The notes under the pieces: generated by a model
The model's database searches: none
What the model was told of the DNA's origin: nothing
What the model saw: the letters and a program-made list of their open reading frames with translations, nothing else
Part shown: piece after piece, positions 3,868 to 35,785 of the stretch
Position numbering within the stretch: position 1 is the first letter of the stretch
Layout: each line of letters starts with the position of its first letter
Program-made: the position numbers and the translations under genes
NCBI GenBank assembly: GCA_002633005.1
Contig: NMRA01001142.1
Location: 10,639 to 49,766, forward strand
Reading direction: 5' to 3'
DNA: 39,128 nucleotides
Source: Phoronis australis
Taxonomy: Eukaryota; Animalia; Phoronida

Positions 3868-4718
3868 TGTTGAGCAACTGGGTCGCGTTCTCGCTGGTTC
3901 CCTGCGTCCTCAGCCTGAAGTATTATCTGGCCGGTTAGGGGCGATAATGAAGACACCAGGTTTAGAACAGTAGGTTTATATTTGAAGACTAAGTACCGAG
4001 AGAACTACTTCATTCAAAGCAATATATGACTACGCTACATAGTAATACGATACTACAACACAGCCCAGCCAGCTACCGCCCAACCTAGCGGCACCCAGGG
4101 AAGTAGCGAGGGTCGCGTTTACCTAAACATTGCAGAGTGACATCTGGTGTGGATTTGAGTAAACAAAAAGGCGCACCTGTTCCTGTGCAATATAGTGCAA
4201 TGTTACACAGACTAGAATCGAATTTCTCACGGATAGTGTGCACTGTATTCGTCAGTGCTGGCGATTTTCATCTCGATCCTTTATTTACCACGAACCTTGT
4301 CCTCTTTCGAACAGCATCCGATGGGCCTGTCAAGGTTTCATGGTTAACACTGGTCAGGTAGACCTTACCAAGCCTACCAAGGTAAGGAGTTTTATTTACT
4401 ATTGTGCTACACTCCTTGGCTCTACTATGTGGATCTTCTCGTCCTACAGAGTATCGGTAGTCCGAATGTGCAGGTGTGTGAGCTACAAGTTGTCCCGGCT
4501 TACTGTAAGTTTCATCATTCAATGAAGTCCGCGATTTCATTCCACATAAAACTATCATTCAATGTTTAGTGACAGTCGCTTGAGTCGCCCGTCATGGGGT
4601 GTTCTGCCAATGTCATTAGATACTCGTAGTCGTAGTCTATGTTGTCATTCTTCCGGGTGTGTTACAAAGGTACCAGTCACCTGTCTAGAGGTGGATTGTT
4701 TCAACGAACATTCATTCA
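3868..4718. mobile_element. Probable solo LTR (851 bp)
   Basis: Starts TG (TGTTGAG) and ends CA (CATTCA). Flanked by identical 5-bp GTTAG (3863-3867 and 4719-4723). No convincing ORF inside; terminal inverted repeat is weak. Confidence 0.5.
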
Positions 4719-5739
4719 GTTAGTGCTCAGAAATTTTGTGTTCGGACAAGTCAAGAACATCCTTCGTGGGTCGGTCAGCATTCGTTCTGAGATTAGCCCG
4801 TGGCTAATGATTTAAAAGTACTGCATAACATTGTGTTATGCACTGACACTTATTTACGGAGGGGTTACGCGTCCATGACACTCGGAAGGCAGCAGTATTG
4901 ACCCACTTGTCATCTGACAGTGGCAGCGTCATCGTCAGGTATTCATTGTCCAATGAGGGGTACTTGACCTAATTTTTAGATGTGGTGCGCTGTAGATTAG
5001 TTGAAAGATGTGTAGCATGGGTGGGAAACAATTGACCCATGCCGACGCAAAACAGGCCCTAGCAGGGGGCCAGGGAAGTGGGACTTACGGACCTCACTGG
5101 GTACGTTAGTTTTAAAACATGTAGCTCTCCTCTTCTGACGGTATGGATTAGTAGAATAATGCTCAAGGAAACAGTTGATAATAATCCCAGTGGGTTATGA
5201 AAAAAAATCGAGGCAAAATTGTATTTTTTGAAAATTAAAAAATCCACTATTTTAAAAAAATGAATACACTATTTTTTTATATTTGTCATTTTCATAGTCA
5301 TGTCTAACTAAGTAGTTAAAAGTTTTTTTTACTTATTTTAGAAAGGAACCGGGAGATTTAACCAATGTATATACCCTTGTTAAGACCCACATGCAGCTAT
5401 TGCAAACTTCCAACTGGAACATTTATTGAATTTAATAATTACAGGACGAATAGTTCTTAGGGTAGAACGTATGAAACTGCTAAAATTAGTATGTGACACA
5501 CTGATGGCTACTTCCTCTATTGAACATGCCTTAAAATGTTAATGGATATTTTTGACGTCCTTATGCTGATGTTAAAGGAGAATGCCACCCGATTAAATTA
5601 GTCTTTTTTACCGTCTTAATCGGTCTATATCCACATCGCCTCTTATACGGTCGACCTCACCTTGCCGAGAGATGTCGCGTTAACCCGTAAGGAAGATGAG
5701 AAACGACGCAGCGATGTCAGTGGTTCGTCTGCAGAGTGT

Positions 5740-6000
5740 ATGCCGCTGTATTGCGAAGCATCGTTCCTGCTTGTCCGAACTATGAAGCTGCGAAGAAAGC
5801 GGGTATATCGTTTTTTCGACTTCCTCGAGAGCTCAAAATGCTTAGGAAGTGGCTCGCGGTAGTGAAGAATGAAAGGTACGCTGTTCATAGCAAATATGAG
5901 GCCGTGAAACATCTGCGTGTCTGTGGCCGGCATTTCGTCGACAGTCGGATTTCCCTGACGAATTCCGGCTTACCGAAGAACTATCCATACGTTCCGTTAC
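5740..6000 (+). pseudogene. THAP zinc-finger domain, N-terminal remnant of the Kolobok transposase, frameshifted
   Basis: Removing GAAGC at 5755-5759 gives MPLYCIVPACPN..ISFFRLP..LRKWL..LRVCGRHF..YVP, i.e. the C2CH THAP signature with conserved P, W and HF. Confidence 0.85.
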
Positions 6001-6150
6001 CTGTGCAGGTTCACGGCGCTTCTCTAGTATTTTTTGGTCAGTGTATTCCGGTTCGAACTGATAGCCTTTGAAATCTAACGATCCGACCCGTGGAGTCTTC
6101 GTCTGATGAGCTCTTCACTAAGTCGGGATTGGCGCCGGACGAGTTGCCAT
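6001..6150 (-). pseudogene. N-terminal remnant of a KolX-like Kolobok accessory protein
   Basis: Minus strand from ATG 6150, with in-frame TAG TGA, reads ..SLDFKGYQFEPEYTDQKILEKRREPAQ. Y-x-F-E-P-E resembles the N-terminus of KolX/'P2RX7-like' proteins (recalled, not searched). Confidence 0.55.
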
Positions 6151-7992
6151 GTAGACGTTTATTTTCTGCGCTCTGATTCAAAATGAATTATTCTCATCCT
6201 AACCAATACTTATGTAGAACTGAAACAAATCCTGTCTCATTAGATACAATTTGTAATGCCTTTGCAGTATTCGTGAGTGCAAATGTTGAGAAGCCAGTAA
6301 TGAATAAACCACTGCGTTACCGGCTTTTGATGCCGGCAATAAAGGTATTTGATCGGGCACCGAGGCCGTGTGAGCGCATGCTAATTCAGTGTTTACTGAC
6401 TGAAAACTGTTGTGAAAAAAATACTCAATTTTATATGCTATGGTCACATGTTAGGGGGATCTTTATTTAGAAATACAAATACATTATTCAAATCATTGTT
6501 ACTGTACAACCTTTGCCCTGACGGTCTGTGGAAAGGGAACCTGACTTTGCGGCCTCCGACAAGTAAGTAGATTTTCAGTTTCGTGGCTAATTCACATAAA
6601 TAATTACGTGTTCCTTTGGCTCACTATTATAGTCTTTTCGTGGCTGGAGGTTTAGTTTCCAACTCAAGCTGGTTTATGTTCGTGCCAGTCCCGGCGGCCG
6701 CGACGGGCCTGATTGGGTTCCGAGCCACTAGCCGGGATAACAAGCGTTTTGTGTGTTTAGAACTCAAAAAATCACAAGTCTAAACAACACAGATCTAGGG
6801 TCTCCTGTCTGTATTCTACGGGAGAATACTTCGAATTATCTCCGAACAGACCCCAAACTCGACCTGCTAGGGACCTTGGAAAATTGACCTGCCGAACTTT
6901 GTAGGCTACGGTGTGTCCAATCCGTAACAGCGAAATAAAACAACACGTTTGTATAAGAACTCGGTGTATTTTTAAGGGTTTTACATCGAGGTTTGATGAT
7001 TTATTGGTGTTAAACGATGGATTAAAGCGATAAGCTGACACCAGTAACCCGTGTTGTGAACTGCTGAAGAGACTACGTGTGAAACCAATGACGTCTTTGG
7101 ATAATTTCAACACCTCCGTCTGTCATCAGGTGTTAGGTAACGCAACCGAACGTGCCGTTATCGAGTAGAACTACTGGATCTAAATTGATACAAAATAGGT
7201 TGTTTTTTGGGTGGCATGCTCCTTTAAATTGAAAACCTGCAGTAAAATCTCACCAATTTCAGACAAAACAATTGCCAAAGTTTTGAAATCTTCTAACATT
7301 GCCGTATATGCGAATGTCCACAATTTCTCCGAATCAATTGTCAGATATGGTAAAGATTTTTAAAAAAATAATTTAGCATTTATTTGGTCTCTTATTTTTT
7401 TTGAAAAAATTAAAAAAACAAAATGTCAGGTGTTGGCCATATTGTGTCCTAAATCAGTTAGATTTTACCATCTGTTCTATTTTGGCACAGTTTTATTATA
7501 TGAGCATATGACTAAATACATGCTTAGGTCCTTCAGTGGAACAGCAACTACTTTGTTTATCTCCTACAGTTACTATACTCAATGACTATGTAATTGTATT
7601 TTCAGGTAACACCAATAGCCACAGGTGGGCCCGTGAAACTGTAAATGGCTTCTGTAAGTGATCATTCGCTGGAAATCTTGAGAGTGCATGGGTCTCAATG
7701 AGATGAACTCTACACTGTAATCTGCATTACCTTTCATCAAGTTGCCCAGCTTGCAATTCCAGAAGGTGTGCATTATCACTGGACATAACTCTGCATTGGT
7801 ATTATCATTCTAACTTCAATGGTTCCATGCAGTCCTGAAGGATGTTGTCACTCACATGGTCTGTCCATTTACGAACTGTAGCAGCTTACAACAGAGTACA
7901 ACATACACATTGTTGACGTCAGCAACAAAAAATTACGCCTGTGCTTAACATTTGATATTGACAGCTCTTGGTCCCTGAAATTTGGAAGTAGT

Positions 7993-8650
7993 GTGCCATC
8001 AGACAGCAACATGCCACCGTCACCAAAGACATTGTTGCCATCCTCGTCCATGGTTCTGCATCCATCTGCTGTTGGTAGCAGCTCTTGGTTACAGGATCTT
8101 GTCGGGACAGAAACTGTTTTGCAACTGGTTGACACCAGCTCGTGGACAATGCAAACATTACTGCCATCCAGTGTTCCTTCTCCGTCTGATTCTAATATTT
8201 TGTCACCACCATCTTCACTTCGTACAACTTTACCACTGTTGTTAACATCATCGTCATCATTATCTTCATTTTCATTGTCATTATCACCATCTCCATCATC
8301 ACCACCACTCACTACCACTGCAAGTTCTGCCACAAGTTCAGTAGCCATAACCACGTCCTTCGTCACCAGTCATGAACCGTCTCGTATCACAGCAGCACAT
8401 ACACTACCAACAGCTGCCATCTTGCCAACATCTCCAGTACATGGAACCTCGCAGCAGCCGCAACAAATGACAACCACAACTAGCAATGTAAAGACAATGT
8501 CTTCTGAAGTTTCAACAACGGGTTTACAGTTTTCAACTACTTTGCCTACAACTGCAGCCAATGGGGGCTCTAAAGTTTCAAGAACAACAACTGCAGGCTT
8601 ACCAGTTTCTGGTAACTCGATGTCGCCTTTCCCATCAACTGATAAGACAA
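7993..8650 (+). CDS. TM-SH3 gene exon: Ser/Thr/Pro-rich mucin-like extracellular region (5' boundary uncertain)
   Basis: 259-aa S/T-rich ORF. Donor A|GTAAG after 8650 (phase 1) splices in frame to the TM exon. Confidence 0.75.
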
Positions 8651-9155
8651 GTAAGAAGGATATTATCCGTGTCCGGTTTGTCGCATGTTGCCAATGTGCA
8701 CTCGTTGAGGACCATGCACGTGTGGTTTTATCTCTAAATGGTTACGTGTTTTCAATTAGTTGTTTCACTTAGTGGTACTTGCAGTTACTAGTAAGTCTTT
8801 TAAAGGTGCAGGCGGTTGTCACTGAAACTAGATTTTTTGTTCTTTTTGTTTTTTGTTTTCAAGTCAAATTATTGTTAACCTTAAATTGATAACGTATCAG
8901 TTGTACTTGATAATTCAACCTGCAGTCACAGGCTATTCTGTTTTACCCTTTGGTTTTGTTTTGTGTTGAGACACGTGCCTTAGTTCAGATACGTGTATGC
9001 AGCTTCAGTTGTTGGCAGATGTTATAAAAACGGTTTATGTTTTATTTTCATTTTGGCATTTAAGTTACTCTCCATACAATCAATTTACACAATGGCATAT
9101 GTCAAGTTGATTTTCTTATCACTGACAATTTGATTGAGGATGCACCTTATTTCAG

Positions 9156-9283
9156 CTCTTCAAAACTCACAGCCCTGGGTCATACCTACTGCAGTCGTCA
9201 TTCCTCTTGTCACTCTTATTATTTTCACTGTTGCTGGTATTCTGTGTTACCGAAAGAGAAGCTGCTTCTCTCAAAGGTTAAAG
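9156..9283 (+). CDS. TM-SH3 gene exon: transmembrane helix plus basic stop-transfer segment
   Basis: Acceptor ttatttcag|. Reads LQNSQPWVIPTAVVIPLVTLIIFTVAGILCYRKRSCFSQRLK. Donor GTCAGT, phase 0. Confidence 0.85.
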
Positions 9284-10126
9284 GTCAGTATGTTTTGTTT
9301 TGCATAAAAATGAATTGGTCATGGTTAAGCTATTCACATCTGAAAACATATTTCACTTGGTTCACTGAATTGTAATGTAGGTCACTAACAATGAATTATT
9401 TGAATGTCTATCAACGGAGTAATGACGCTTTCTTGTGTGTAATGAACTAGTAATAATTTGCCTGGGGTTGTATTTAGATGTTAAAACGGCAATCAACCAA
9501 CGATCCATCAAAGAAATATTAACTTTTGATTTAGACCTCCAGTACTGCTGGTCTCACTTGTTCCTTACCCAGATGAGAAATGATACTGATCTTGCTCAAA
9601 ACTATGCTAGGGGAGTAAAAAGATACGTCTTGACAAGCCATCTTGCAGAGCCTGGTGTCAAGCAATGGAAGGAGCTGCATGCTACTTCCAAGCCATGATA
9701 TCACAGTCCTATCTTGCATGACTCATCTTTAGGGCAATTTCATAACATTGAGTTGTCTAAATCAAAATTTTGTTTCTGTTGCTTTTAAGAGGCAGCTCTA
9801 GAAGGCAGGTTTGCAACGGTTTTAAGTTTGACACGGTGTTAAGTATGAATGTATTGTTTCTGCCAAAGTATTGGTGTAATAAGTGTGTAGTATTCAACCT
9901 ACAGCTCACGACAATGATAAGTTTACTTGCAAGTAAAACTGTGTTTGACCCCTTCGCAAGATGCCAGTTACGTGTACATGCTAAAGTGTCTACCAATGCC
10001 CATGTACACCAAACTGTAACTTTAGGAACTGTTCACAAATCGTTGCCATTTTCACTAGCATTCAAAACTCACGTTTTTGACGCCCCTTCCCCAGAAGCAG
10101 AACAAAATGTTGATATAGGTCAATAT

Positions 10127-10308
10127 TCATTTAGTCATGTAAAGTGTGCTGTAAACTTTAATGCTGGTTCATAAAATATCAATCATTTTCAATTTATTTT
10201 CAATGACTTGTTTTCACTATTCATTTAGTTAATGTAAGGTGTGCTATACACTTTAATGTTAGTTGATAAAATTTAGATTATTTTCAATTAATTTCCATGA
10301 CATGTTTT
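10127..10308. repeat. Diverged ~92-bp tandem duplication (intronic)
   Basis: ATTCATTTAGT..GTGTGCT..ACTTTAATG..TTTTCAATT..ATGAC..GTTTT occurs twice head to tail. Confidence 0.75.
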
Positions 10309-11050
10309 TATAGAAAAACAATAATTAGCTTTATTTTTTGTTTTTTGCATCCTCATTTATTTGATGTCAAAAGCATATACTGACAGTACATCTTTGACTG
10401 CCTCCCTCTCTCCCTAAATCAATGTTCTGTACATTTCCGTGAAATTGTTGATAATTATGAAGGGTTCCTTTAGGTAAAGAATTACAATCAACACTACGCG
10501 ATCATTCACTTCATGTTAGGCACTATGGGGATGCTTGAAAATGTGTCGTCAGTGACTATTTTCAACCATTTTGTTTTACGTCAAATCTATTTTTAGACTG
10601 CTGACACAAAACACAATGTTCACTATTTGTGAAATGTCATAAATGCCAAAATTAATTGCGCATGTCCCAATATTCAAAATTAAGAAAAAATTTTCCCTTA
10701 AATTTTGAGTGTCCCAAATTTTATATACTCTCCTCAACTGGGAATAATTACTAATAAATGTAAAACTGGTAGAACGTAATTTTTAAAACCAAGAAGTTGA
10801 AAGCAATTATACAAAAACTCTAAATGCTTGTTTAAAACATGTTTATTATTGAAATGGGCAGCTTTATAAACCAGCAGAATTTAGAGCATTTCCATGCGCC
10901 TTGCTTCAAAGTACACAAGCAAAAGTAGCCAAACCCCAGGCCCTTCACCCCTTAGCTTGTGCTTGATTTTAACCCTGTGTTGAGTATCTATAGTTATGGG
11001 CTCAAGCTTAATAATCTTGTTTTCATGGTATTTGTGTTTGTACCCCTCAG

Positions 11051-11153
11051 AGGAACAGAAGAACTGACAGCGACGGTTCGCTGAAACTTGACAAGTTAAA
11101 AATCAATGAAGGCACAAACAACAAGGGTTTTGTTAACAGTGATGACCTCTCAG
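11051..11153 (+). CDS. TM-SH3 gene exon: juxtamembrane cytoplasmic linker
   Basis: cccctcag| RNRRTDSDGSLKLDKLKINEGTNNKGFVNSDDLS |GTATGT. Phases 0/1 match both neighbours. Confidence 0.8.
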
Positions 11154-11931
11154 GTATGTGTTATGTGTTATGTGTGCTTCATTGGTGAGTGTAGTTGCTT
11201 TTTTAATGGCAGAAATAATTCAAATTTTGAATTACGATGGGTTTAAGTGTTTTGCAGGATTGTACTTCATAGGGAATGAAGCTTGGTGTTCTTGACATGT
11301 TGTAGTATTTGTCTCGTATTCGTCTTATCTTGGTTTGTACAGATTTTAGGCCTCTGTTAACTGCACTCAGAGCTATTGAAAAAATACAAGGCATAGATCT
11401 TCTGCATTATACAATAAAGCATTTCTTGATTAAAATTTAATAGTTTGCACTATCTCAGTGTTTGACAATAGGCTTCAGCTCAATTTAAAAATAGACATGC
11501 GCATACCACAGGGCTGTAACCATTTACTAAAAATACCTGGTCGAGCTGGTTGGCACATTCATTGATTGCTGGGTTTCTTATGTTAAATTTTCCTGAGTGG
11601 AACCTTTCCATTGCTATCTTCAGTTTCGTTTGCCATGCGAGTAACATGCTCACACACCAACACTTGGACTACAAAACAATTGATTTTTTTATCGACTCAC
11701 TTTCTTTGCTGCCTTGAAGTCTAATTCGTCACTTTTAGCACATAGTATGCCCGACAAGTGAAAATGTATTTTGTTTAATTTCTCAACAAAAGTAATGATT
11801 AAGAAAATTCTGGTCCATTGCTTAGATATATGGTTTGTCAGTTGTGTAAATGACATCAAACACCATTCTATACTTTCTAGCAACATTATCAGCCTTTAGA
11901 AAAACGAAGATTTTTTTCTTTTTTCCTTCAG

Positions 11932-12152
11932 TTGTTGGACCCAGCGTCTACACAGTTCAGTATTCTTACGTAGCCCAGGAGGAAAATGAACTCAGTCTTG
12001 AAGTAGGAGAGAGGCTGAAAGTGATTCTCAAGTATGACAGTGATTGGTGGGTTGGTCATAATGTGACCAATGGGAAGGAAGGATATGTGCCAGCCTCCTA
12101 TTTGATGTTAGATGCTCAGCACGCAGAGAAAGGACAGAGTGTAGTGATAGAG
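11932..12152 (+). CDS. TM-SH3 gene exon: SH3 domain 1
   Basis: VYTVQYSYVAQEENELSLEVGERLKVILKYDSDWWVGHNVTNGKEGYVPASYL matches the SH3 consensus. Polypyrimidine/AG acceptor and GTATGA donor. Confidence 0.92.
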
Positions 12153-12941
12153 GTATGATTTATGTGTGAACATGCATTTCTTGGGTTAATTTGTGATTTG
12201 GATATTTTGCTTTAAGCTAGAGTGCGTGGATATCACAGGTTCACAGCTAGAGTTACTATTGTGTTGGGACCTGTATGTATTCCAATGCCAAAATTTGAGT
12301 TGCATATTTACGGGTATCAAAGGCACGCAATCCCACTTGAAGTGGTTATAAGCCTGTCAACTTTTGATTTAGACCACTTTGACCACTATAAAAATGATGT
12401 GACGTCTTGTGCTTTACTCTGAGAGAATTTATTTCTAGTTTGCAAGGAACTGGCAGTCTGTTCTTCCTTGAGACCATACTCAGTGCATAAAATGGCGTGT
12501 TGTGGACACAAGAAAACAAATTGTAGAGCCAGGTCTCAACCATTCACAAGTTCCTTTGAAGCTCTGATGTTATCTCTGTATTTGACTAAGGAACAAGTTG
12601 ATACCAATTTCATAACAATGTTTCAAATCAGAAGTTAGTTTTTGTGTTAAAAAGTGGGTTTGTAGCTGTTTTAAACTAATGAAGTGACCACCCTTTGCTA
12701 CTTTATGCCGTGGGTCTGAGCTTGTTATGATGAAAAGTATTGTGGGCTTTGGGTGAGTTTAGGAATATGATGCTCTGAGAATACTAAAAGTGAATTTCAT
12801 AGATACAAAAATTATGTCCTGAAGAACAGGCCATTGAACCACCATTAGAGAAATCATGAATCAAAAGTTATTTGAATAGAAAATTTTCACTTAAATATTT
12901 TGCTCTTAAGTTCCCAAACTGTCATTTTTCTATTTTTCAGA

Positions 12942-13313
12942 GGTTCATTTCCTTGCTACAAATAATGGGAATTTTACCAAATGAATGTTGTTTTATTACT
13001 CAGTTCTGTGTTGCCCTAACCAAGCTATGATAGACTTAAATTTATAATTTTGTAGAAAACTTTGACAAAATAAAATTTCAGACATATTTTGTGTTGTGGT
13101 GAAGATTTACCATGTATGGGACCAGAAAACTTTTTGTTGATAGCAATAAGGATGATGATAATGATATGAGTGGGTCCGGTTCATTTCCTTCCTGAAAATA
13201 ATGGGGATTTTACCAAATTTGGAACTTAGTTCTATGTTGTATATCCTAACCAAGCTATGATAGACTGAAAGTTATAATTTTGTAAAAAAAACTTCGACAA
13301 TATTTTGTGCTGT
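12942..13313. repeat. Diverged ~140-bp direct duplication (intronic)
   Basis: GGTTCATTTCCTT..TTTTACCAAAT..CCTAACCAAGCTATGATAGACT..TTATAATTTTGTA at ~12942 and ~13178. Confidence 0.8.
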
Positions 13314-13677
13314 AAACTTTCTACTTTCTACTTCAAAATTGATATCTGCTTGTTCTTAACTTACTTGAGAAGTGATTTCCGGATTCTAAACATTAACAGT
13401 AATTGTGATTGCTTGGGAGCTTGCTTGGCGTCAAATTTTCAGTTCTTTTTAAGCCCAAAAATCACCTCTAATTTGAGTAAGGAACAAACTGAGACCAATC
13501 AGTCCCACAGTGGGTAAATAGTCTCAATCAAATTTTACCTTGTCTGATGAACTTGAAGGTGAGTTTTTAGGAGATTTGATTATCATAGTTAGTAGCAGTT
13601 GTTTTGATAGTTATTGACTGATGTGTAATGCTGGTTGGATTGTCACCATCATTTAGCTCATTGCATTAATTTTTCAG

Positions 13678-13771
13678 GCCCAAAGAAGCCCAGAGCAGGC
13701 AAATGTAACAACTTCCACCAAATCTCGACAATCCGGCTCATATGAACATCTGCAAAATTTGGACTTTCGTG
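13678..13771 (+). CDS. TM-SH3 gene exon: linker with YEHL motif
   Basis: tttttcag| AQRSPEQANVTTSTKSRQSGSYEHLQNLDFR |GTAAC. Phases 0/1 consistent. Confidence 0.75.
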
Positions 13772-14033
13772 GTAACATGATATAGTGCAATATACAAGCT
13801 GTGTTTGTTGTCGTTTTTGTTTCCAAATATGATTTTCTCAATAATTTTTTTGTTTGGTAGTGATTGAAAAATAGCAGCAGATAGATTTCTAGTAATCAAG
13901 CTACTTCTTGTTGTTAAAGTTGACAAAGTTTGAATTGTATAAAAATTAAAAAATAGATAGTTCTGTAAACCTTCTGTCAACATCTGAGTTTTGGTTATGG
14001 TGACATCTGAACTGAACCATGTCCCCTTTACAG

Positions 14034-14221
14034 GCTCAAGATATTTCAAGGCTGTGTACTCCTACCAGAGCTCAGAGGATGGGGATCTGTGTTTCTTGGA
14101 AGGTGACATCATTGAAGCACTGGAAGGTGACCCTGAGGCCTGGGTCAAAGGTTACTTGGATCGTACCAAGATGGAGGGGTGGCTGCCTGGGAGTTATCTG
14201 GAACCAGTTGACTCCACACAG
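14034..14221 (+). CDS. TM-SH3 gene exon: SH3 domain 2
   Basis: YFKAVYSYQSSEDGDLCFLEGDIIEALEGDPEAWVKGYLDRTKMEGWLPGSYLEP. AG/GT boundaries, phases 1/0. Confidence 0.9.
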
Positions 14222-14588
14222 GTTTTACTTGACGAATGTCTACAATACATCAGTGTTGGGCTCAAATAATGTGTGTAGCCCAGAACCAACCTGTTTTTTT
14301 ATTTAAAACTTTTTTGGTCATGCAAGGTTGCTTGTTGTGGTGTTTCCAGCTTTTATTTGGATTGCCAATTTTTTCTAATTATAATATTGCTGTTTCTGTG
14401 CAATGATTTTATGTGGTTTTTCTGTGCAACGATTCTTTGGATTTGACCCTGTGTCTGCGCTTTCGTCTACTGGGCTATTTCGGACATGACCAGCAGGTGG
14501 CATAGAAGAGATTCATCATACTAATTACTTCTGCTACAAAATATCAGTGTGCTGATTTTGAATCATATTCGTCATTTTATTTATCTAG

Positions 14589-14676
14589 GACGATAAAACT
14601 GAGTATGCCAAACTATACGCACAGTTGAGGACATGTAACAGTGAAGCCACCGAAAACACAGCCACATTCGCTATTG
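14589..14676 (+). CDS. TM-SH3 gene exon: linker with TEYAKL / YAQL tyrosine motifs
   Basis: ttatctag| DDKTEYAKLYAQLRTCNSEATENTATFAI |GTAAG. Phases 0/1. Confidence 0.78.
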
Positions 14677-14895
14677 GTAAGATCTCTGATGCCTGCTTTG
14701 CCAACTAGGTCTAATAGCTGACTTCATACCATAATAAATACTACCACAAATCTGGCCTAGATGAAACTAGTTGCAAAATCTGTCATGCAATGCTTTCATG
14801 AATTGAGGGCATGAAATTGAACTCTGCTTGATCAAGTTTAAAATCAAATTTTGTTGCATATGACTGGCTGTACACATCTAAGGATTGTGAAACTG

Positions 14896-15143
14896 GGGCC
14901 CGTTCCAAGAAACTGACTTAAGTTCATTTTTGACTTAAGTCTGAGATTTGTCTTAACTTCTATACTTTGAAAATTCCACATCCGGTCAGATAGTTAAAAT
15001 TAGGATTGAACTTTTATCAAAAACGTAATTCAAACTTAGGATCTCTTGCTGAAAACAGTCTCGAGACAAATTTAAGTTTTATCTTAAAATTTACTAAAAT
15101 TTAAGATTTGTCTTAGCTAAGTCAGTTTTGTTGGAACGGGCCC
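14896..15143. mobile_element. PIF/Harbinger-type MITE in an intron
   Basis: TIR GGGCCCGTTCCAA(G/C)AAA(A)CTGACTTA at both ends. 3-bp TSD CTG (14893-14895, 15144-15146), the CWG type seen in animal Harbingers. Confidence 0.85.
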
Positions 15144-15297
15144 CTGGTCTACATTTCTATAAAGCACTTGTTATGCTTGTTTGCATGATTTATGCACAGG
15201 ATTGTGCCGAATTTGGAACACCAGAAGTCCTTTAGTATACTGTACTGTGATGACATTGTTGTGGTGGTTTGTATATATCAGCCATTGTCCCCCACAG

Positions 15298-15455
15298 AGC
15301 ATGTGGCGTTGTATGACTATGAGATCCAGGAAGAAGGTGACCTCTCATTTAAGTCTGGGGAAATAATTCTCGTTGTGGAAACCCTGGACAATGGCTGGTG
15401 GCTGGGCTGCATTGGTGCTGACAGGCATGGATGGTTTCCTGGAAATCTAGTGGAG
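15298..15455 (+). CDS. TM-SH3 gene exon: SH3 domain 3
   Basis: EHVALYDYEIQEEGDLSFKSGEIILVVETLDNGWWLGCIGADRHGWFPGNLVE, with canonical ALYDY, WW and GxFPxN. Phases 1/0. Confidence 0.93.
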
Positions 15456-15901
15456 GTGAAAATTATGATGACATTTTAAAATGTGACTTGTACACTGCAA
15501 TTGCTGCTTCCAATAACAGAGTAATCTGCTCAGTGTGTGCCTCATAAACTTGTAGAGCATAGGCAGATCCAGGATGGGAGGTCCAGACCCCATTTTCCCT
15601 TGAATTTAGTGATATCAAATCTGGAATTTTCAAATTGTTGACTTGAGTCTCCCTTTTTAAAAAAACCTTGATTCGATCCCCCTTTTAAAAAATCTGGATT
15701 TACCACCACGATATTTGACAATGAAATACTTTCAAGCTGCAATTGCCTGACAATCAGAAGACTACGGCTAGTAGCTTTTACCAATTTAATTGTTTTCAAT
15801 ATTTTGCTTGCTCTTGAGTACCAGCCCTGGGAATTCTAATATCAACTCTTATTTGCCCACATTGACCTGTGCTACAACTGTTATTGTGTGCACCATTGCA
15901 G

Positions 15902-15989
15902 CTAGTGGACGATATCCCCACAGAGCATGCGCCATCACCATACTTGTCATTGATAGCCAGCAGTGACTCGCAATCTCCTGGAGATAATG
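15902..15989 (+). CDS. TM-SH3 gene exon: linker with ITIM-consensus SPYLSL
   Basis: ccattgcag| LVDDIPTEHAPSPYLSLIASSDSQSPGDN |GTAAAT. Phases 0/1. Confidence 0.75.
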
Positions 15990-16445
15990 GTAAATACGGA
16001 TGAATCACTAAAAAGTCAATTATAGTCCTAGCTCATAGGAAAACCACAAGAAAACTACAGATTTCCTACAATTGTAGCAGGAGTGCTTCCATTGCGGTCT
16101 CTTGAGTGAACGACATTTATAAAAAGAGATCAGTTCTGTCACCTCTGGTCAACTTTAACGTTGCTACAATTCTTGAACCTTTTCTCAAAGTCTACAAAAT
16201 TAATGAATGTCGATCTGTACTACTTTTTCCCAGGGTTTTAATTGTAATTTTAGATTTGAAAAGGTGTGTCTGCTGACAAGTCCTTTACAACTTGTCCTAA
16301 AACAATACAATTTTTGAGTTAAGTTTTGAGTAAAGAGGTTAGAATCTGGACTCTGATCTTAAGTTTTCAGATAGTGTAATAGCTGTTGATATCTTTTATA
16401 CTCAAATCATTTCAATTATTGTCAAGCTTGAAAATATGTTTTCAG

Positions 16446-18184
16446 ATTACATTGAACCCATATCTCTAGAAACCAACACTTCATCCGCACCAGTACCAGT
16501 TGTAACTGAATCAGTTGAACCAGTTGTCCCACGCCCCCTCAGACCAGCACCATCAGTTCCATCCTCTATCTCTCAGCAGCCGAAGACCTCGTCACCATCC
16601 ACTTCAAGTGTGCCTAGTGGGATTGTTGCAAGTGACTCATGTCCTACAGGCAATGCTGGTGGTGACAGCGGAACAAACATTTCTCTTAGGGAGGTCCCAG
16701 TGCCACCTGGGGTTGAAAAACAAACCGATTCGAGTTCCAGCCATGATGAAAGTACTTCAAAAAATCATGGAAAATGTGATATAACTGAAAGATCGCATTC
16801 CAGTGGTCATGATGAACAGAAAAGTAAACGTGGGCAGGTGCCATACTGGAGTGACAATCATAGTAAACCAGAAAAATTCCACCAATTTGAAACAGGTCAT
16901 CAATCTGTGGCTCCTTCTAGTGAAGATCATGTCAGGACTCCACCACCCAGATATCCACCACCTCGCCTGCCTCCTGGTGCTAAATCAGACAAAATACCTG
17001 AGCATACAGTCAATGCAGATAATGCTGACCAGCCTAAACGCAGGTGGTTTAACTTGAGAGATGCAGCTGGAAAATTAATTCAGCGTCTACGAAGCACATC
17101 AGAATTGGAAGCACCCACTAGTCCAGGTGACAGTGGTGGCAGTCCATTGGAATCACCTGCTAGTTCTAGTGTAGTTAAGGAAATATCTGGTCCTGAGCTG
17201 ATGGAAACTACCTTCAGAGTTAGTAACTTAGTGAAGCGAGCGCCCAAAAGGCCAACTTCTCCTCCAAAGAGGCGACTAAATGCTCATTTTGTTACTGTTC
17301 CCAGTTCATCCAATGTGATGAAGGGTGTCAAACGTGCACCTCAGAGACCCCCTCCTCCCAAACGCCCTGCACTTCCATTGAAATCCAATATTAAACCAAA
17401 GCGGCCATCAAAACCCCCAAGCAGGATCCCTCCTAAGAGGCCTTCCTCGCCTCCATCAAGAGCTGTTCCAGCACCACTGGTGATGCACAAACAACATAAT
17501 GACAATTTGGTATTAAAAGGGCTTCAAAATGAAAGAAATGAAAATCAGAAACATGGTCAGCCTCTGATTAAACCACGTCCGCCTTACAAGATGAAAAATC
17601 CTGAAAAATTGATACCGGCTGGCGACAATGACAAACTGGTAGCTGCACCATTTGGAGTCGCTCTTCGTCATGTTTCTGTGGGTGGAAAAGAGGATACGAG
17701 TAACAAATCACCTGAAGGTGGTGTCATTACCATGGCAACTGAGAGTGACCAGGGCAAGTTGAAATTTAACCAGGTTTTAGATAATGTTCATAATAAGGAA
17801 AAGGAGATCCTGAGAAACAGCGGTGTTACAGTGGCCGAAGATTTTTCCAATCTTAAAGAGCATCCTCTCGTTGGGAAGGTTGCAATTCACACTAACAGTC
17901 ATACTGGCAAGGCAAAACCACCACTTAATGCTAAGCCAGTAATCTCGCCGAAACCTAAGACTATGCCAAAACCAATACCTGCTAGTGAGACCCTCAACTC
18001 ATCAAATACTCCTGAACCCAAGCCAAGACTCGCCACTAATCCTGTGACTGCCCTTCCCCATCCAAAACCAAGAGTGGGTGTACCACGCAAGGTTGTGTTG
18101 CGGAAAGCCATCAGGTCGTATCATTCTGCAGATACTGAGGAGTTGTCATTTGAAGCAGGAAGCTTTATTAAGGATATACGAGAA
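16446..18184 (+). CDS. TM-SH3 gene exon: ~580-aa Pro-rich disordered region plus first half of SH3 domain 4
   Basis: Long ORF with many PxxP/RxxPxxP motifs, ending LRKAIRSYHSADTEELSFEAGSFIKDIRE |GTAAGT. Acceptor tttcag at 16445. Confidence 0.9.
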
Positions 18185-19441
18185 GTAAGTCTGATACAAT
18201 GAATCACTGATCTTAGTGTCTTCTATGATACAAAACACAAGTTTGGAGTTGGATGCATTGGTTAAATGAGGAAGCTGAGATGCATACTTTTAGACCTTTG
18301 TATGGATAGCACCAAACTTCATATACACAAGGAATTGTGGGATAGCAGTCATCCAAAGCATCATGGCTAGTAGTATGTAAGCAAACAATCTGTAGAAGTC
18401 ATTCTTTGTTTAGTAGTACTTCAAGTGGGCATGAATGTTCAGTTTGTCATAGATGCATGCATAGAGGTATCATCTAAATCAAGTACCAGCTTACCGAGTA
18501 GACATTCACCTTTTTGTGACTTTGTGCATTGGATGACTGGTATCCCACGTTAAATCTGTGCTGTGGGATGCACATTGATTTTTGCTATTTGTAAAAAGGT
18601 TGGTGGTGCTATGAGTGCAGTTTTTATCTTGAGCATGCAGTGAAGCGTAAGAATTAGGTTTACAAAAGTTTTCTAACTTGCAGCTTCTAGATTTCACTTT
18701 GGCATCTCTGCTTATTGTGTTCATCTTGGGATCAAGCTCATCACAGTCTGCACCACTTTAACGTACTTCTTGTTGTAATGATGTCCTTTAAATCTAAATC
18801 ACAACTGAAGCCTTCCAGTTACCCCTGGTTATCCACATTCTCTCAGGCCCAGCTTCTGTTGAGAGTTAGTGACGCATATAATTAGCTTATAAGCCATGCT
18901 TGGAACTAATTTCCAATGAATAGCTCAAACTTTGGGTTTTTGTTGATAATATCATTTGTTCCATTTTTGAAAACTCAAAAACCCACAGTCTAATTTTTAC
19001 CACTGTATTTAGCTTTCATCATTCACACTGCTTTTCATGCCCCAAAAGAAAATGGAAAAGTACAGCCTGGATGCTTTCAAGCAACAGTTATTGCCATACA
19101 TGACCTAAGGAATAGAGTCATTCCTTCAATGACCAGCCCACTAGTGAGAAGGTTAACGTAGATAAAACCAGATGGGCTCACCAGGTGACATCGGAGGAAA
19201 ACAAATGATTTCACCCAATCAATCCTTATGCTTACAGCATGTATATTTGAGTAAAGCTTTGTAGATTCACAAGTGCATCGCCATCATGAGCAATTTTTGT
19301 CTTTGTTTACCTTACCATCAGTGACTTGTAGTTGTCTTGGAATTATGTTCATTTTCTTACAGGTGGACACCTTAATACTCAAGATGACCGAAACTGCTCT
19401 GTAGCACTGTTGTGACTATATCTTTGTTGTGTCTTATCCAG

Positions 19442-19552
19442 GTTCCGGGGCAGTATGGTTGGCGGTATGGTATGCTGGCTGATGGGACGACAGGGAAGTA
19501 CCAAGAGGAATGTGTGGAATTAGCTGTGCCTGTGAAAAGTGCCATGATCTGA
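19442..19552 (+). CDS. TM-SH3 gene terminal exon: second half of atypical SH3 domain 4 and stop
   Basis: cttatccag| VPGQYGWRYGMLADGTTGKYQEECVELAVPVKSAMI*. Completes the SH3 fold in phase 0. Confidence 0.8.
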   Translation, partial: VPGQYGWRYGMLADGTTGKYQEECVELAVPVKSAMI

Positions 19553-22099
19553 CGTGCTTGATGCAACCGGCATCTTATCCCGAATGGCAACAAGAATGTG
19601 ATAGTGAACACTTAAATAATTATACACAACATAATACACACAAATATTTTGGTTTGAAGATGAATCATCTTCAGTACTGAAAGACAATCATAGGAGACAC
19701 GGATATTAGAGTGTACACAGTTAACAACAGTCATGTCAATCAGACTACAGCTCTGGCCTCAGACTCCTGCCATACAGTGATTTACGTGGATTTTCCTTTT
19801 TATCTCTCTCTTCCTTATCTCTCTCTTCCTTATCTGTTGTTGGTCTTATAGACTTCTAATATCTGGTGTTTGTTATGACTCTGCCTGTCAGCACTTATCA
19901 TGGTTTACATTCTAACCAAACCGTTCATCATCACCTTCCTGATGGGTGTGGCTGTTTGAATAGTGTTTAACTGAATGCAATATAAAATAAAGCATGTGCG
20001 TTAACATTTTCTGATACTGTATTTTAGAAATCTCAAAATTGGTCGAAGACAGGGCATTCTTGTTCTCTGTTGACAGTTTAAGAGACATTATTAGCGAGAA
20101 AAGTGATTTTCTGAGATCAGCCTTGGCATGGAATGGAACTTGCAATCACAGCTTTTGCAGTCTTGTACTCTGCTGACAGAGCTAAACCCCACACTATAAA
20201 TGACAGAGTATTTTAAGTGTAGTCGATTGGCCATCATTTCAGCGAATGTCTGGCAGACAACACCAAGAATTTGCAATTTGTAATGTAATCACAAAAACAA
20301 AATATTTTATTACATAGCTCTGATCTATACTAATAACTTCAAGAATAATAAAAGAAGTCTATCCCATCCAACAATTATCTGAAAAATGTGTGTACTTGAC
20401 ACATGTATTTTCTCACCTTCAGTCCAGCCTCAACGTGTAAGAATCATTTTCTACAGTATATTTGATCAGTTATATGTGTCTAGTTGAGGTTGTTCTTTGA
20501 TGGTTGACATGTACCAGTAATTAATTTTGTAGTAGTGTGCATTGAATTTTTTTGAAAACTGGCATCACTTCTGTGTCATCGCTCAACCAATTTTACGAGA
20601 GAGGCTGCTGCCAGACTATCTATATATACATGTAATAGTCTAAAACATAGCTTTGTGGATTTATTTTTAATTTAAAACACAACAGTTACTGTTAGAGAAT
20701 TGTTGCATGACTTGTATTTGATTTTTTTCAAAGGTCAATTGAAAAACGTGACCTGTGGAGTCTGTAATAGAATCTCAGAACAAATTGGCCCATGCAATGT
20801 AGTTTTGTCACTAGACTCCTGGTATGCACTTGTATTTAGTATCTTGCAGACTCTTGTCATCTGTTCAGAAGTATTTTTCGATGACCCACGGATCTTGGTT
20901 GTTGCAAGGGGGCCCAATCACGATTTCTGAATGAAATGTTCCCGTATAACTCTTGAAAACAGGGCACCAGTAAGAAGTACATGTAGTGAAATTCCCCAAA
21001 GTGGTCTGGTCTCATCCCTGTGGGTTTGCTGAGGCTTCTTCTATTGGACATTTTCGGTGTGCTCATGAAATGTGCCTAGTAAAATTTAGATGAGTCTCTT
21101 GCTTAATAACTAAATAGTCCTCTTCTGTCGACTATTAGGATTTTTGCATAATATTTGTATTATTTTTAAATTGTTACTGCTACTAGTCGATTGAGCTGGT
21201 GTTACCTTTGTGTCTATTGGCTTTGTATGACTTACTGTTAGTTATTATTAAACAGGTTACAGTCAGTTATTATGAGATTGTTAAATATGCTGTTACATCC
21301 TTTTTCTTTGATGCAGTTCATCGTTCCATCTGTTTTATTAACTATAGTGTTTTTGACTTTTTAAACTCGAGCGCCTATTTTTACTCAGGCGTTGAAAATG
21401 CTCCAAGAACAATTGTCTTACATTCCATCAGCCTTCTTGCATAACTTCATATATTTTGAATTGAGCAATTTGTATACTTATGGAATTGTTTGATAATTAA
21501 TATCAAATATGAAAGTGATTTTTGTTGTTTTCACTTCTGACTTTCCTAATTTTACCCTACAGACCAAGTGGTGGTGTTTTTACGAAGTTATTTCAGCTGC
21601 AGCGACCTTGTGTTATTCTTGCAGTTTGTAGTTGGTTATTTTTACCTTGAGCTTGTCACTGTATTTGTAACTTGACTACTGTTCATCCGTGCGCTGGTTG
21701 CGTGTCCGCACATGGAGTCTCGGTTAAGCCAAGTTCAGAACAAATTCAAGACTAAAGCCCGGTGCTGCGTTCCGTGCAGAAAATATCTTGCGAGATCATG
21801 GTAGCCGGTTGCGAATTTGAGACCAGTTCCAAGCAGGTGAGAAATGCGCTGTGTGATTGTCGTAAAAACATGAATCTAGTGTTATCAGTGGCATATTGTG
21901 AATGTGGTCTGCCAATTTTGTTTGGCCAACATGCACGTATAAATCAAATGTAAAGAACAGGAATCGACGGCATCTTTCCCGCGAAACTAGAAAACAACTT
22001 ACTAAACATAATTCACTGGACTTGTTAAATCAACTATTTCATACAAATTAATGCGTCCTTCTTATGCAACTCTATTGCGCATTCAATGGTTTTCATGGT

Positions 22100-28618: not shown

Positions 28619-29604
28619 TTTTTCTTGGCTTTATTGTTGCAGCTTTATTCAATCACCTCCGTTCTGAGCAGTTTGATTTTACTGTCAGTTGTGAATGTCC
28701 TTAAAGTTACTGCCTATGTTCATTAATAAGGATCTAATTTCTTCTATAACTTCAATTATTAATAATCAGGACTCAACATAATGACCAGCTGGTCGCATTT
28801 GCGATCTGAAATTAGGAAATGCAAGCTGAGATTTTGCCATGTCGTGTCAAGTTGTAAAATGCAACCTAGAATTTCCAACATACACTTCTTGGCAGGTATA
28901 AAGTAACTTGCATGAATCCGACCATTATTTGGTTGTTGCCAAATCAAATTCAAAAGAACACTAATCAAGAAAAGCCCACCTGATGACTTATAAGCATGTC
29001 GCGTGAACATGGAATACTGCAGAATTGATCTTCAACGCATTTCATTTTTGGCTACTTTTGCAAATTTCTAACTGTGCCGAAGAGAGTTTCGGACCACAGC
29101 ATAATGTGTGATAAAAGGACATAAGACAGGTGTTTCTACTAAGTCCTAGACAATCAACTTGACAAACTTTGTGATGGAAAATAAATTTATTTTTCAAGTA
29201 AGATGTCCTTATTATCAAATATCCACGACAAAATCCTTGATGTTGCTCTGCGCACTGGTCGGTGCCGTTGTTAGCGCACAAGCCACACTCCCGGCAGACC
29301 ACCGTGGCTTGGAATTGTGCATCTCGTTCTTTATCGTAAAAGATCTAAATAGATTCCCGGCAGTTATGAAAGATCCTAGGCCTTGTTGATATTACTCGGG
29401 ACTGATTTTTATAGCATCGAGCCCTGATAATAGACCCACAAAATGTATATTTTTCAAATCCCTGAGGATCCTCTAGGATTTCAAAATGTATAGTTTTATG
29501 GGTCTACTTTTAAGTATTGAAAAGTTATGTAAAAGTGACTGTTTGACATAAAGATCAATATTTTGAAGAGACTTCACATATTGCAACATTCTGTGTTTCA
29601 GAAG

Positions 29605-32346
29605 ATGCCAAAACCGCCAAAACGCAAAAAGTTTGGCATCGCAGTAAGGAGAAAAAAAGGAAGAGTGGTCACGAGACATGCTGAACATCCGTATTCATGT
29701 GTGAGTCTGCCACCGGAACACTTGCCACATCCTTCAGTTGGTTCATCGTTTTGGGAAATTCCCAATTTCAATGATGTTGGCAGTGGGTACGTCCATGAAG
29801 AAAAGATGGACCTTGATGGTCATCATGCGGACGAGTTTTATGTAATCTTGGACAGTGGCCCCGTTCTCGTAAGTCCAGACACAGACACTGACGTTTTGTA
29901 CAAGGACTCCGCATATGAAAAACTGAGAGAGTGTGTGAAAAACCTTGAGCCACCAGAGGGCTATTTTTACTACTCGAAGTATAGCTGTATTCAGTATGTC
30001 AGTCTGATTGAAAGTATCAACCCCTCTGTGAATGTCTCAGTGACTATACATAGATATTTTTCTGCACATGTGAATGTTCACACAAAAATGTTGCCTGGTT
30101 CTAGTGATTTTTGGACTGGCTTACCCAAACTATATAAGTCTGTCAGTGATGTAAGTAGGTTACTCAATAGATTGTCTATGTTTGAGGTGTGTCGTGGGAA
30201 CGATAGGGAGGACTTCCAGTTCTTAGTTCCTGTTGGGTGTGGTATGTCAGGTAGTAAGGCACAGTCAATTCAGGCCTATCGGGAAATGTATAATTGTCAA
30301 TCAACAATTAGACATGTAGCTTGTGAACTTCTTGTCTGGCAAGGCCAAAGATGCTGTAGGTGTAGGCTGTATAGTGCCACTGTGCGCAAATCCCTCTCTA
30401 GGTGTACTACTGGAAGTCGTAATGCTCAGTCAGAGAGCTTAGTCTCAAGTCGAAAAAGGGAGAGCTATATGACACCAAAAGAACTTAAGCAAAAACTTGC
30501 CGAAAGCAAGAAAATACGCACTCAGTTACATCATGAAGCGGAGAGTTTGCGAAAGCAGATAGATGCTTTGATTCAAGTTCAGGGTTTAGTTTTACCTGAG
30601 ACTGACAGTTTTCAATTGTTTAGTATGGTTAGTGACCACCAGGGCGAGGTGGAGTCTGCCTTCCCGGAAAGCGATAGCTTTCAGCGGCTGTTTTGGGAGC
30701 AGCAAGTTATGTACAATAAGACCAATAAGGGTAAGGGGATGCGTTGGCACCCCATGATAGTACGCTGGTGTTTGTACTTGCGTTCCAAGTCTAGTAAGGC
30801 TTATGAAGCCATGAGGTCGAGTGGATTTATTTCTTTGCCGTGTGCGCACACCTTATATGATTACAGTCATTTTACTGTAAGTGGATGTGGAATACTACCC
30901 GACGTGCTTGGCCTTTTAAAGAGTGCGTGTAAGAAACAGGGTTGTTATGACGTGCCTCATAAGCGGTTTGTCGGAATTTTACAAGATGAGGTTAAGGTAC
31001 AGGATGACCTGGTTTACGACAAACATAGTGGGGAGTTAATAGGATATGTAGACCTTGATAGTGTAGGAAATCAACTGCAGGAGCTTAGGGACACACTAAG
31101 AAATCAGGCAGCTATTGTTGCTCGCTATGTTCTCATTGTTATGGTTAGGGGTGCCACTTCTGGCTTGAAGTTTCCTTTAGCTAATTATGCCACTGATGGG
31201 ATTTCTAGCTACTTTTTATACCCTATAATATGGAAGGCCATAGAGGTATTGGAAGTTGACCTTGACCTTCGGGTGATATTTATAACATGTGATGGGGCCT
31301 CTCCCAACAGGAAATTTTTTCATTTACATAGGGTTAGGGCTGATCATCATCTTGATAGAGTTATTTACAAATGTTTAAATCCCATGTCTCCTGATCATTA
31401 TTTTCTATATTTCATATCAGACCCACCTCACCTGCTGAAAACTTCTCGCAACTGTTTCAGCAATATTCAGGTGGCCATATCAGATCAAGAAACTTGTGGA
31501 ATGGGCAAGAAATAACATGGCGTCATATTGTTAGGCTCTTTGAAGAGCACTGTGAAAATAATCTGTATACGTTATGTCCCAAGTTAACCAGAACTCATGT
31601 GTATCTCACACCCTTTTCCAGAATGAAGGTGAATTTAGCTGCTCAGATTTTGAGTGCCACTGTTGCCAAGGCGTTAGAATTTTACTATGGTGCAGAAGTT
31701 AGTAAAACCGTGCGATTTATCTCTATAATGAATAAGTTATTTGACTGTCTGAACACGAAAAATTTAGATGAAGGTGTCAGGAGTCGCAACCCACAGGTTG
31801 ATGCATATAGATGTGTGAATGATGACAGGTTAAAGGAGCATGCCACCCAAAAAACAACCTAATTTGTATCAATTTAGATCGAGTAGTTCTCCTCGATAGC
31901 GGCACGTACGGTTGCGTTACCTGACACCNAGCCTTTAAGGTGGCTATTGAATGATTGTCTTGTTACTTTCGACAGTGGCGTGAAACAGTTAATACTGTTC
32001 CTGGTCTAAGCAAGGCTAAAAAAGCAAAAATGCTTCTGAGTAATCAAACTCTGGAGGGTATAGAGTTAAGTGTTCGATCAATTTGTGAATTGACTGTGTT
32101 TTTGTTGAACAGTGGTGCCCCATTTGTATTAACCTCTGCTTTTAATCAGGACCCCTTGGAGCAACACTTTGGCATTATCGCCACAAAGGTGGGGCAAACG
32201 ACAACCCAACTGTTCGTCAAGTGCAGCAAATCATGACTGAACTTAGAACAGTAGGAGAGTTGGCTTTAAATAGGCGAGGTAATGTTCAAGTAGGTCCTGA
32301 TTCTTGTCCAGCCATTGACGACACCCCTCTACCTAGAAGGCATTAG
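29605..32346 (+). pseudogene. P-element/THAP9-like DDE transposase lacking a THAP domain, disrupted
   Basis: Motifs RWHPMIVRWCLYL, QDEVKV, TCDGASPN, SDPPHLLKTSRN, PKLT..H..FSRMKVNLAAQ, LFDCLN, NQDPLEQHFG and GGANDNPT. Frameshifts near 31465, 31955 and 32172, plus an insertion at 31834-31934. Stop TAG at 32344-32346. Confidence 0.93.
31834..31934 (-). mobile_element. Kolobok insertion (same family as 5576-7223), collapsed across an assembly gap
   Basis: 31834-31928 is a near-identical reverse complement of ~7129-7223. AGG..CCT ends with TTAA at 31830-31833 and 31935-31938. N at 31929. Excision restores D-R-L-R-W-L-L. Confidence 0.88.
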
Positions 32347-35221: not shown

Positions 35222-35785
35222 AATTCACTTCTTAACTCACAACAGATGTAATGTGCTTTTAAAATGCAGTAAAGTAAAAGAAACCAGTAAAAATCAGCAA
35301 AGTGAAAGAAAAGACTTCTGAATACAACGTATATTCCAATTGGCTTATAAATGAAAAACGCCGACGTAGAAGAAACCACCGGTGCTGCGCCAAATAATTG
35401 CAGGAATTACACGACAAAACAAGACTACGCTGCGGCGAAACTCGGAAAAATACGTCCCCTATAATTCTAAACGTATACATCAGATATTTTACGGATGAAA
35501 GAACCAATTTCCCGTATGATTAACATTTTGAGACCCCAAGTCGCAGTAAAACTAGATTTTATGCCCACGAAAGTAAAAAACGCTCATCACTGACCCATTT
35601 TAAGGCTATTTTTAACAGATAAAAAAACAACAACGAAGTACAATTTCAAGTCAGTTGTATTCTACGTGCTCTAATTAGTACAATCAATGCATTTACAATT
35701 AATGACAGAACTTTAACATCGTCAAATTTTCAATAACAACACCTACAAGAATCACAAGGATTCTAATGCTGTGAAAGGGCGTGTA

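Follow-up and report, generated by a model that had tools for sequence, protein, structure and literature searches.

The 39,128-nucleotide stretch of Phoronis australis DNA analysed here (contig NMRA01001142.1; hereafter the window) is eukaryotic and intron-rich, with about 40% GC, and carries a gene whose predicted product combines, in a single chain, a serine/threonine-rich (S/T-rich) N-terminus, one transmembrane (TM) helix, three SH3 domains, a proline-rich tail and a terminal SH3 domain. An earlier reading of the letters of the window (the original prediction) had considered this layout to be lineage-specific. It is instead shared by proteins of bivalve and gastropod molluscs, Lingula anatina, Owenia fusiformis, Ptychodera flava and the sponge Oscarella pearsei, and the Phoronis protein is apparently a member of an unnamed family as old as animals; a fusion specific to the window is thus rejected. 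The protein is probably a membrane-anchored scaffold which, given the architecture observed, would use its SH3 domains and proline-rich tail to hold actin-regulating and endocytic proteins, its presumed partners, at the plasma membrane, with a mode of regulation that is likewise presumed.

Relatives were found by word-seeded searches and by a HMMER search of 1.84 billion representatives, from which the best 150 of 358 hits at E-values up to 1e-30 were considered. Family assignment was based on SH3-only Pfam content and the family-profile score, leaving out isoform duplicates, the fragment P0183 and P0095, a doubtful member. This gives at least 46 family representatives, 31 of which have a TM segment ahead of the first SH3 domain (20 of those with four SH3 domains), whilst the remaining 15 comprise twelve oyster Logan open reading frames (ORFs), two models in which this part is missing and one whose start falls within the TM segment. 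TM segment and SH3 domains are found in one ORF on single assembled contigs of 5.5–7.4 kb (P0014, P0026 and P0028), and the Oscarella pearsei member is a complete transcriptome ORF of 1,816 aa. Among 134 new proteins from the HMMER search, 17 have a TM-like segment and eight are clear members by family-profile score. The named hits, which cover a minority of these new proteins within the best 150 of 358, include no member from a vertebrate, arthropod, nematode or cnidarian; for the first three groups this is weak evidence of loss.

Members are labelled in databases as ‘intersectin’, ‘SH3 and PX domain-containing 2A’, ‘CD2AP-like’, ‘dynamin-binding protein’, titin-like or mucin-2-like; these are compositional or best-hit labels that mislabel the family, and no name or description of it was found in search listings of an open-access library, including those for six of the members’ accession or locus identifiers. 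In the ESM Atlas the family occupies its own cluster of 89 members (0.90). P0095, a lead there at 0.75, is a 571-aa protein with a TM segment and three SH3 domains, a different ectodomain and neither the linker motif nor the tail described below; in the trees its SH3-3 joins the family by a long branch, and its membership is doubtful.

The Phoronis gene consists of 11 forward-strand exons (Table 1), all bounded by GT-AG splice sites and with matching phases, which join into a single frame of 1,200 codons whose sole stop is terminal. The exon count, the phases and the one-chain order of mucin-like region, TM helix, three SH3 domains, proline-rich region and SH3 domain had been correctly anticipated in the original prediction. 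Its exon edge at 7993 proved to be neither a splice site nor a start: the left edge of the first exon in the joined model is given as 7965/7992 (right edge 8650), and the first in-frame ATG, with A at −3, lies at 8011, from which the predicted product counts 1,185 aa. Eight upstream ATGs are present in the part of this exon that is likely to be 5′ untranslated region (UTR). A previous exon model, with an acceptor at 15282 and without exon 15902–15989, was out of frame and was replaced by the model with the acceptor at 15298. Each of SH3-1 to SH3-3 is encoded by a phase 1-0 exon followed by a phase 0-1 linker exon of 88–94 nt (11932–15989), an arrangement suggestive of an exon pair that was duplicated in tandem. 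Further upstream, a short ATG-led frame at 4340–4381 (+) ends at a strong donor (CCAAG|gtaagg) and is a candidate untranslated first exon.

SH3-1, SH3-2 and SH3-3 all exceed the Pfam SH3_1 cutoff (Table 1). SH3-4 was missed by the exon-by-exon Pfam search because the last intron splits it, and was identified by alignment with the terminal SH3 domain of the relatives. The aromatic, tryptophan and proline residues that we take to be the ligand contacts are kept in SH3-1 to SH3-3, whereas SH3-4 is without the proline and tyrosine. Likeness of SH3-4 to structures of known proteins is generic: its profile retrieved the PACSIN and Grb2 SH3 domains from the PDB at 45 bits or less, and Foldseek with the model of the Patella member returned generic SH3 matches only.

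The SH3 domains were placed in a 103-domain tree and later in an 87-domain tree with new members; SH3D19, Dlish and POSH are in neither tree. In the former, SH3-3 and SH3-4 of the Phoronis protein fall in family clades (97/96 and 100/98 respectively), with SH3-1 and SH3-2 having no resolved placement. In the latter, SH3-4 of the sponge, hemichordate, mollusc and Phoronis proteins forms one clade (98/90), within which the Phoronis domain is nested among molluscs; Phoronis SH3-2 lies within a family clade (96/81), and SH3-3 has a family clade (100/79) that excludes the sponge. Constraining the sponge domains into one clade with the family was not rejected (p-AU 0.50 for SH3-3 and 0.40 for SH3-2), a result that is compatible with such a clade and is not proof of it. 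The SH3-3 and SH3-4 family clades are separate from those of intersectin, CIN85, Tks and SORBS. A tree of the joined SH3-1 to SH3-3 places the Phoronis protein outside the sampled bivalves and gastropods (93.7/93) and weakly beside Owenia.

Outside the SH3 folds, two short motifs recur in the family. The linker between SH3-2 and SH3-3 contains a YxxL motif whose tyrosine and leucine are invariant in a 29-sequence alignment; YAQL of the Phoronis protein aligns with it, and AlphaFold models this region of the Patella member as a helix. A basic motif of 13 residues, ahead of a PPPRP-like run, is present in the proline-rich tail; it scores 22.1 bits in the sponge and 19.6 bits in the hemichordate (0 of 1000 shuffles as high in each) and is also significant in four of six held-out molluscs. 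At one tail position the Phoronis (ISGPEL), Lingula and Owenia proteins share ISxPxL, found in 3 of 17 proteins and in 2–4% of shuffled tails; its I, P and L match contact positions of the partial CRIB through which POSH is described as binding Rac1 (PMC12728182). This likeness is a lead only, and when ISGPEL and its surroundings were compared with PDB sequences, designed repeat proteins alone were returned. Many members end in S/T-x-V/L, a PDZ-type C-terminus, and the Phoronis protein ends in SAMI. A complex prediction between Patella SH3-1 to SH3-3 and the tail motif, run without an alignment, scored 0.06 and was not used as evidence.

The Phoronis protein contains one hydrophobic 19-mer, with a mean Kyte–Doolittle (KD) value of 2.72 (runner-up 1.23), which is followed by a juxtamembrane cysteine and seven lysine/arginine (K/R) residues within the next 15. 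Its ectodomain is about 220 aa long, 40% S+T, Cys-free and without a signal peptide. In all 22 TM-bearing proteins examined, 0–1 K/R residues precede the TM segment and 4–8 follow it, and 21 of the 22 have the juxtamembrane cysteine; the charge bias therefore favours a cytosolic location of the SH3 side. The ectodomain ranges from 8 to 1,350 aa across the family and has no conserved sequence, with zero invariant columns in the 29-sequence alignment. It is only 8–70 aa long in Ptychodera (24 aa), Pecten and two oyster database models, and in most members, the sponge included, it is S/T-rich (24–52%) and mostly Cys-free. In the Patella AlphaFold model (mean pLDDT 53.7, pTM 0.36) the ectodomain is disordered, a single TM helix and four SH3 folds are present together with the linker helix, and the tail motif shows some order.

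If the gene model lacked an upstream signal-peptide exon, the product would be an ordinary type I membrane protein whose role as a scaffold is unchanged, a reading that we consider quite unlikely. Exons further upstream were not found, and a hydrophobic N-terminal start is found in Lingula, Plakobranchus and, weakly, Oscarella among 30 models that begin with methionine, but most such models, including RefSeq entries and single-contig Logan ORFs, lack one. In the window, contiguous sense reads with no listed joint cover 7594–7965 and an in-frame TAG lies at 7879–7881; together with the first ATG at 8011, these make a product without a signal peptide likely. The sole upstream signal-like ATG with a donor (1596) is out of phase with all four acceptors considered at 7965–8007, of which three come from the splice-site list and 8003/8007 was read from the sequence.

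RNA evidence was drawn from a contig set guessed to be RNA (X1) and from about 18–19% of each of three raw RNA-seq runs (X2–X4). Stranded reads over the exons are sense, their first mates mapping to the minus strand, the orientation that a forward-strand transcript gives in most stranded libraries. Six of the ten introns are supported: five by listed joints (8650/9156, 11153/11932, 13771/14034, 15989/16446 and 18184/19442) and the intron 12152/13678 through a contig loose end identical to the next exon. None of the joints 14221/14589, 14676/15298 and 15455/15902 is among the rows listed, and they may lie in 19 further rows. Of the three junctions singled out for checking in the original prediction, 8650–9156 and 11153–11932 were thus recovered and 9283–11051 was not. 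The first of these, seen in an X1 contig and four reads of X4, is listed as 8647>9153, a leftward shift of three bases that probably reflects an allele at 8650. In the 3′ UTR, X1 contig 7 extends to 20098 and sense reads to 20600. High-copy repeats within introns (14893–15150, 12358–13500 and 15593–15645) attract many off-target RNA reads on both strands.

As a membrane-anchored scaffold, the protein would insert N-out/C-in without a signal peptide, its TM segment serving as a reverse signal-anchor. The ectodomain would be an O-glycosylated, unstructured spacer and not a specific ligand-binder, and the juxtamembrane cysteine may be palmitoylated. The predicted ligands of SH3-1 to SH3-3 are dynamin-, WASP- or kinase-type PxxP sequences, the YxxL helix in the linker ahead of SH3-3 could act as a phospho-switch or internalisation signal, and the proline-rich tail could bind other SH3 adaptors. 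The basic tail motif may fold back onto the protein’s own SH3 domains, and the atypical SH3-4 may bind a non-PxxP partner.

Several observations count against this reading or against placing the Phoronis protein in the family. It is unusual for an N-terminus of 220 aa to be moved across the membrane when no signal peptide is present. N-side sequons are not enriched (60 observed versus 63.7 shuffled) and give no support for an N-out orientation, and sequons on the SH3 side are mildly in excess (185 versus 160 shuffled, p 0.002), with neighbouring offsets high too. The Phoronis copy of the tail motif is collinear with those of the relatives but degenerate (5.8 bits, with 85 of 1000 shuffles as high), and the motif hidden Markov model (HMM) missed it. 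In the 87-domain tree Phoronis SH3-1 lies outside the family, with outgroups on a long branch, and Oscarella SH3-1 to SH3-3 have no resolved placement. Finally, the joint 9283/11051, which connects the TM exon to the cytoplasmic part, is absent from the complete joint table at a depth of about 2–6.

This last point, along with an X1 contig (contig 4) that starts at about 11052 with six differences in its first 96 aligned letters and twelve oyster Logan ORFs that begin just after the TM segment, would fit separate transcripts for the mucin/TM and SH3 exons, or a soluble four-SH3 adaptor starting in the intron 9284–11050. We consider this very unlikely. No rival loose end is seen at 9283 or 11051, and sense depth is similar on both exons. 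Between scallop isoforms there is a difference of two residues immediately behind the TM segment, at the position of this joint, a likely alternative-splice point at which reads would be split and contigs broken. In the oyster ORFs the starts fall on several Val/Leu codons, one class of them within the TM exon, and the TM segment is present in a sister ORF; these are therefore likely to be gene-caller starts, and a soluble oyster isoform was rejected as an artefact of this kind. TM segment and SH3 domains, moreover, occur in one chain in the 31 TM-bearing relatives. Elsewhere in the family, the Haliotis-cluster ORF P0023 seems to pass from intron sequence into its coding frame directly behind SH3-3, a position at which the Phoronis gene has a phase-0 intron.

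The S/T-rich, mostly Cys-free composition of the ectodomain, ISxPxL with its match to the POSH contacts, and the convergence of yeast Msb2 and Sho1 on Cdc42 (10.1101/2020.12.18.423530) would also suit a one-chain signalling mucin, in which the ectodomain senses the glycosylation state or stress, whether osmotic or mechanical, undergoes shedding or stretching, and triggers a Rac/Cdc42–mitogen-activated protein kinase (MAPK) cascade assembled on the protein’s own SH3 domains. We regard this, the main rival reading, as rather unlikely: the ectodomain is unconserved and has only 8–70 aa in the short models, Pfam found no SEA or other cleavage domain, and ISxPxL is restricted to three proteins and arises in shuffled tails. 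The lack of conservation, the spread in length and the general lack of a signal peptide therefore fit a membrane-anchored scaffold better than a specific mucin sensor. A more far-reaching proposal, and an unlikely one, is that the family is an undescribed receptor class that predates the sponge–bilaterian split and was lost in vertebrates, insects and nematodes, in which the mucin stalk reports contact or membrane tension to the four SH3 domains and the basic tail motif keeps these shut until tyrosine phosphorylation or Rac binding. Such a class would be an animal one-chain counterpart of yeast Fus1, Msb2 and Sho1.

With a scaffold built as a membrane protein, the family would extend the ancestral cell-cortex toolkit of animals by one component, and the gene is an example of one kept in sponges, spiralians and hemichordates and not found in the standard models. 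Recognising the family corrects many database labels (intersectin, SH3PXD2A, titin-like and mucin-2-like), and the linker YxxL, the basic tail motif and the atypical SH3-4 are direct experimental targets in oyster, Aplysia or an annelid.

Table 1. Features of the TM–SH3 gene in the window
Feature	Position	Strand	Evidence
Likely 5′ UTR part of first coding exon	7606..8010	+	acceptor 7606; sense reads 7594–7965 in X2–X4
Coding exon 1, predicted ectodomain, S/T-rich (40%), Cys-free, K/R-poor	8011..8650	+	RNA joint to 9156
TM exon, helix about 9176–9247	9156..9283	+	sense coverage; downstream joint not observed
Juxtamembrane cytoplasmic exon	11051..11153	+	joint to 11932 in X1, X2, X3
SH3-1 exon	11932..12152	+	Pfam SH3_1 53.4 bits; X1 contig 4 continues into next exon
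Linker exon with YEHL	13678..13771	+	joint to 14034 in all four runs
SH3-2 exon	14034..14221	+	Pfam SH3_1 40.7 bits; family clade 96/81 in 87-domain tree
Linker exon with family-conserved YxxL (YAQL, 14616–14627)	14589..14676	+	junctions inferred from phase alone
SH3-3 exon	15298..15455	+	Pfam SH3_1 58.2 bits; junctions inferred from phase alone
Linker exon with YLSL	15902..15989	+	joint to 16446 in X1 and X2
Large exon, disordered Pro/Lys-rich tail, 18 PxxP	16446..18184	+	X1 contigs 6 and 7
ISGPEL, inside large exon	17183..17200	+	
Degenerate family tail motif, inside large exon	17264..17302	+	
First half of SH3-4, inside large exon	18095..18184	+	
Last coding exon, second half of atypical SH3-4, stop TGA	19442..19552	+	joint 18184/19442 in X1, X2, X3
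3′ UTR	19553..20360	+	AATAAA at 19986 and 20347; end unmapped

The surroundings of the gene contain traces of mobile elements. Upstream, a THAP-domain ORF at 5700–6071 (+; Pfam 42.6 bits) is probably part of a transposon, 6400–7347 is a high-copy repeat in RNA, and 7129–7227 matches 31830–31928 in reverse at 94%. Downstream, 29539–32236 (+) encodes a frameshifted P-element/THAP9-like transposase, in which a TNP-like RNase H N and a GTP-binding insertion score 69 bits each and RNase H C is weak, and three ORF pieces at 33699–35224 (−), one with a weak C2H2 zinc finger, are probably a degraded mobile element. Positions 1–754 are taken up by a long, degenerate repeat of GAT/GGT whose unit measures 27 nt; one of its frames is Asp/Gly-rich for about 70 codons.

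Multi-SH3 scaffolds of animals are generally soluble and recruited to receptors. CIN85/CD2AP, intersectin, Tks4/5, SORBS/vinexin, POSH and Dlish resemble the Phoronis protein in having tandem SH3 domains followed by a proline-rich region, but identity with the families compared was rejected. CIN85/CD2AP are soluble, with three N-terminal SH3 domains and a C-terminal coiled coil; the Phoronis protein has a TM segment, ends in an SH3 domain, and its SH3 domains lie outside the CIN85 clades. Intersectin has EH domains, five SH3 domains and an optional DH-PH-C2 module, and Pfam found no EH or DH domain, the SH3 domains also lying outside the intersectin clades. Neither the N-terminal PX domain of Tks4/Tks5 (SH3PXD2) nor a RING domain was found by Pfam in the window exons or the relatives. 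The Sorbin-homology domain (PF02208) that accompanies the three C-terminal SH3 domains of SORBS/vinexin is absent from the window exons and family matches, and the clades are separate. Dlish/Vamana is described as cytoplasmic with three SH3 domains (PMC5047748) and was set aside on topology only, the Phoronis protein having a TM segment and four SH3 domains. The original statement that no named ortholog was recognised thus stands, by domains and trees, for CIN85, SORBS/vinexin, intersectin and Tks; SH3D19, also named there, was absent from the trees.

Integral membrane proteins with SH3 domains had been thought in the original prediction to carry a single one. Chytrid proteins (Entophlyctis, Rhizoclosmatium, Siphonaria and Chytriomyces; P0141, P0143–P0145 and P0158), labelled ‘Sorbin and SH3 domain-containing protein 2’, contradict this, having a Cys-rich ectodomain, one TM segment and 8–10 tandem SH3 domains. 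For the two members tested, the repeats group in a separate clade (100/95, 87-domain tree), and the chytrid architecture is likely to be of independent origin.

Sho1, like the Phoronis protein, carries an SH3 domain. Msb2 is described as activated by Yps1 cleavage, and Sho1 as a four-pass protein (10.1101/2020.12.18.423530). Together the two resemble the Phoronis protein in pairing a mucin-type ectodomain with an SH3-bearing membrane adaptor, but they are two proteins, one of them four-pass. Yeast Fus1, a 512-aa protein that is not known to have a cleaved signal peptide, was reportedly found to be O-glycosylated by Trueheart and Fink in 1989. It is described as a single-pass type I membrane protein whose cytosolic SH3 domain and proline-rich region bind a polarity scaffold (PMC2063912). 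Fus1 thus shares one chain, a single TM segment and a cytosolic tail with SH3 and proline-rich elements with the Phoronis protein, but has one SH3 domain and is fungal; no homology is expected, and it is an analogue only. By this analogy of layout, Fus1 is a closer one-chain analogue than Msb2 plus Sho1.

The vertebrate transmembrane adaptors LAT, NTAL and PAG are described as having a single TM segment, a juxtamembrane cysteine, tyrosine motifs, no enzyme domain and few extracellular residues, and the PAG tail as having proline-rich SH3-binding sites (PMC3342071). The Phoronis protein resembles adaptors of the LAT/PAG type in its single TM segment, juxtamembrane cysteine (not in CxxC spacing) and apparently non-enzymatic tail with tyrosine motifs. 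It differs in its four SH3 domains and extracellular part of about 220 aa; that account describes few extracellular residues and no SH3 domain. By analogy, the Phoronis protein resembles a soluble multi-SH3 scaffold fused to a transmembrane adaptor.

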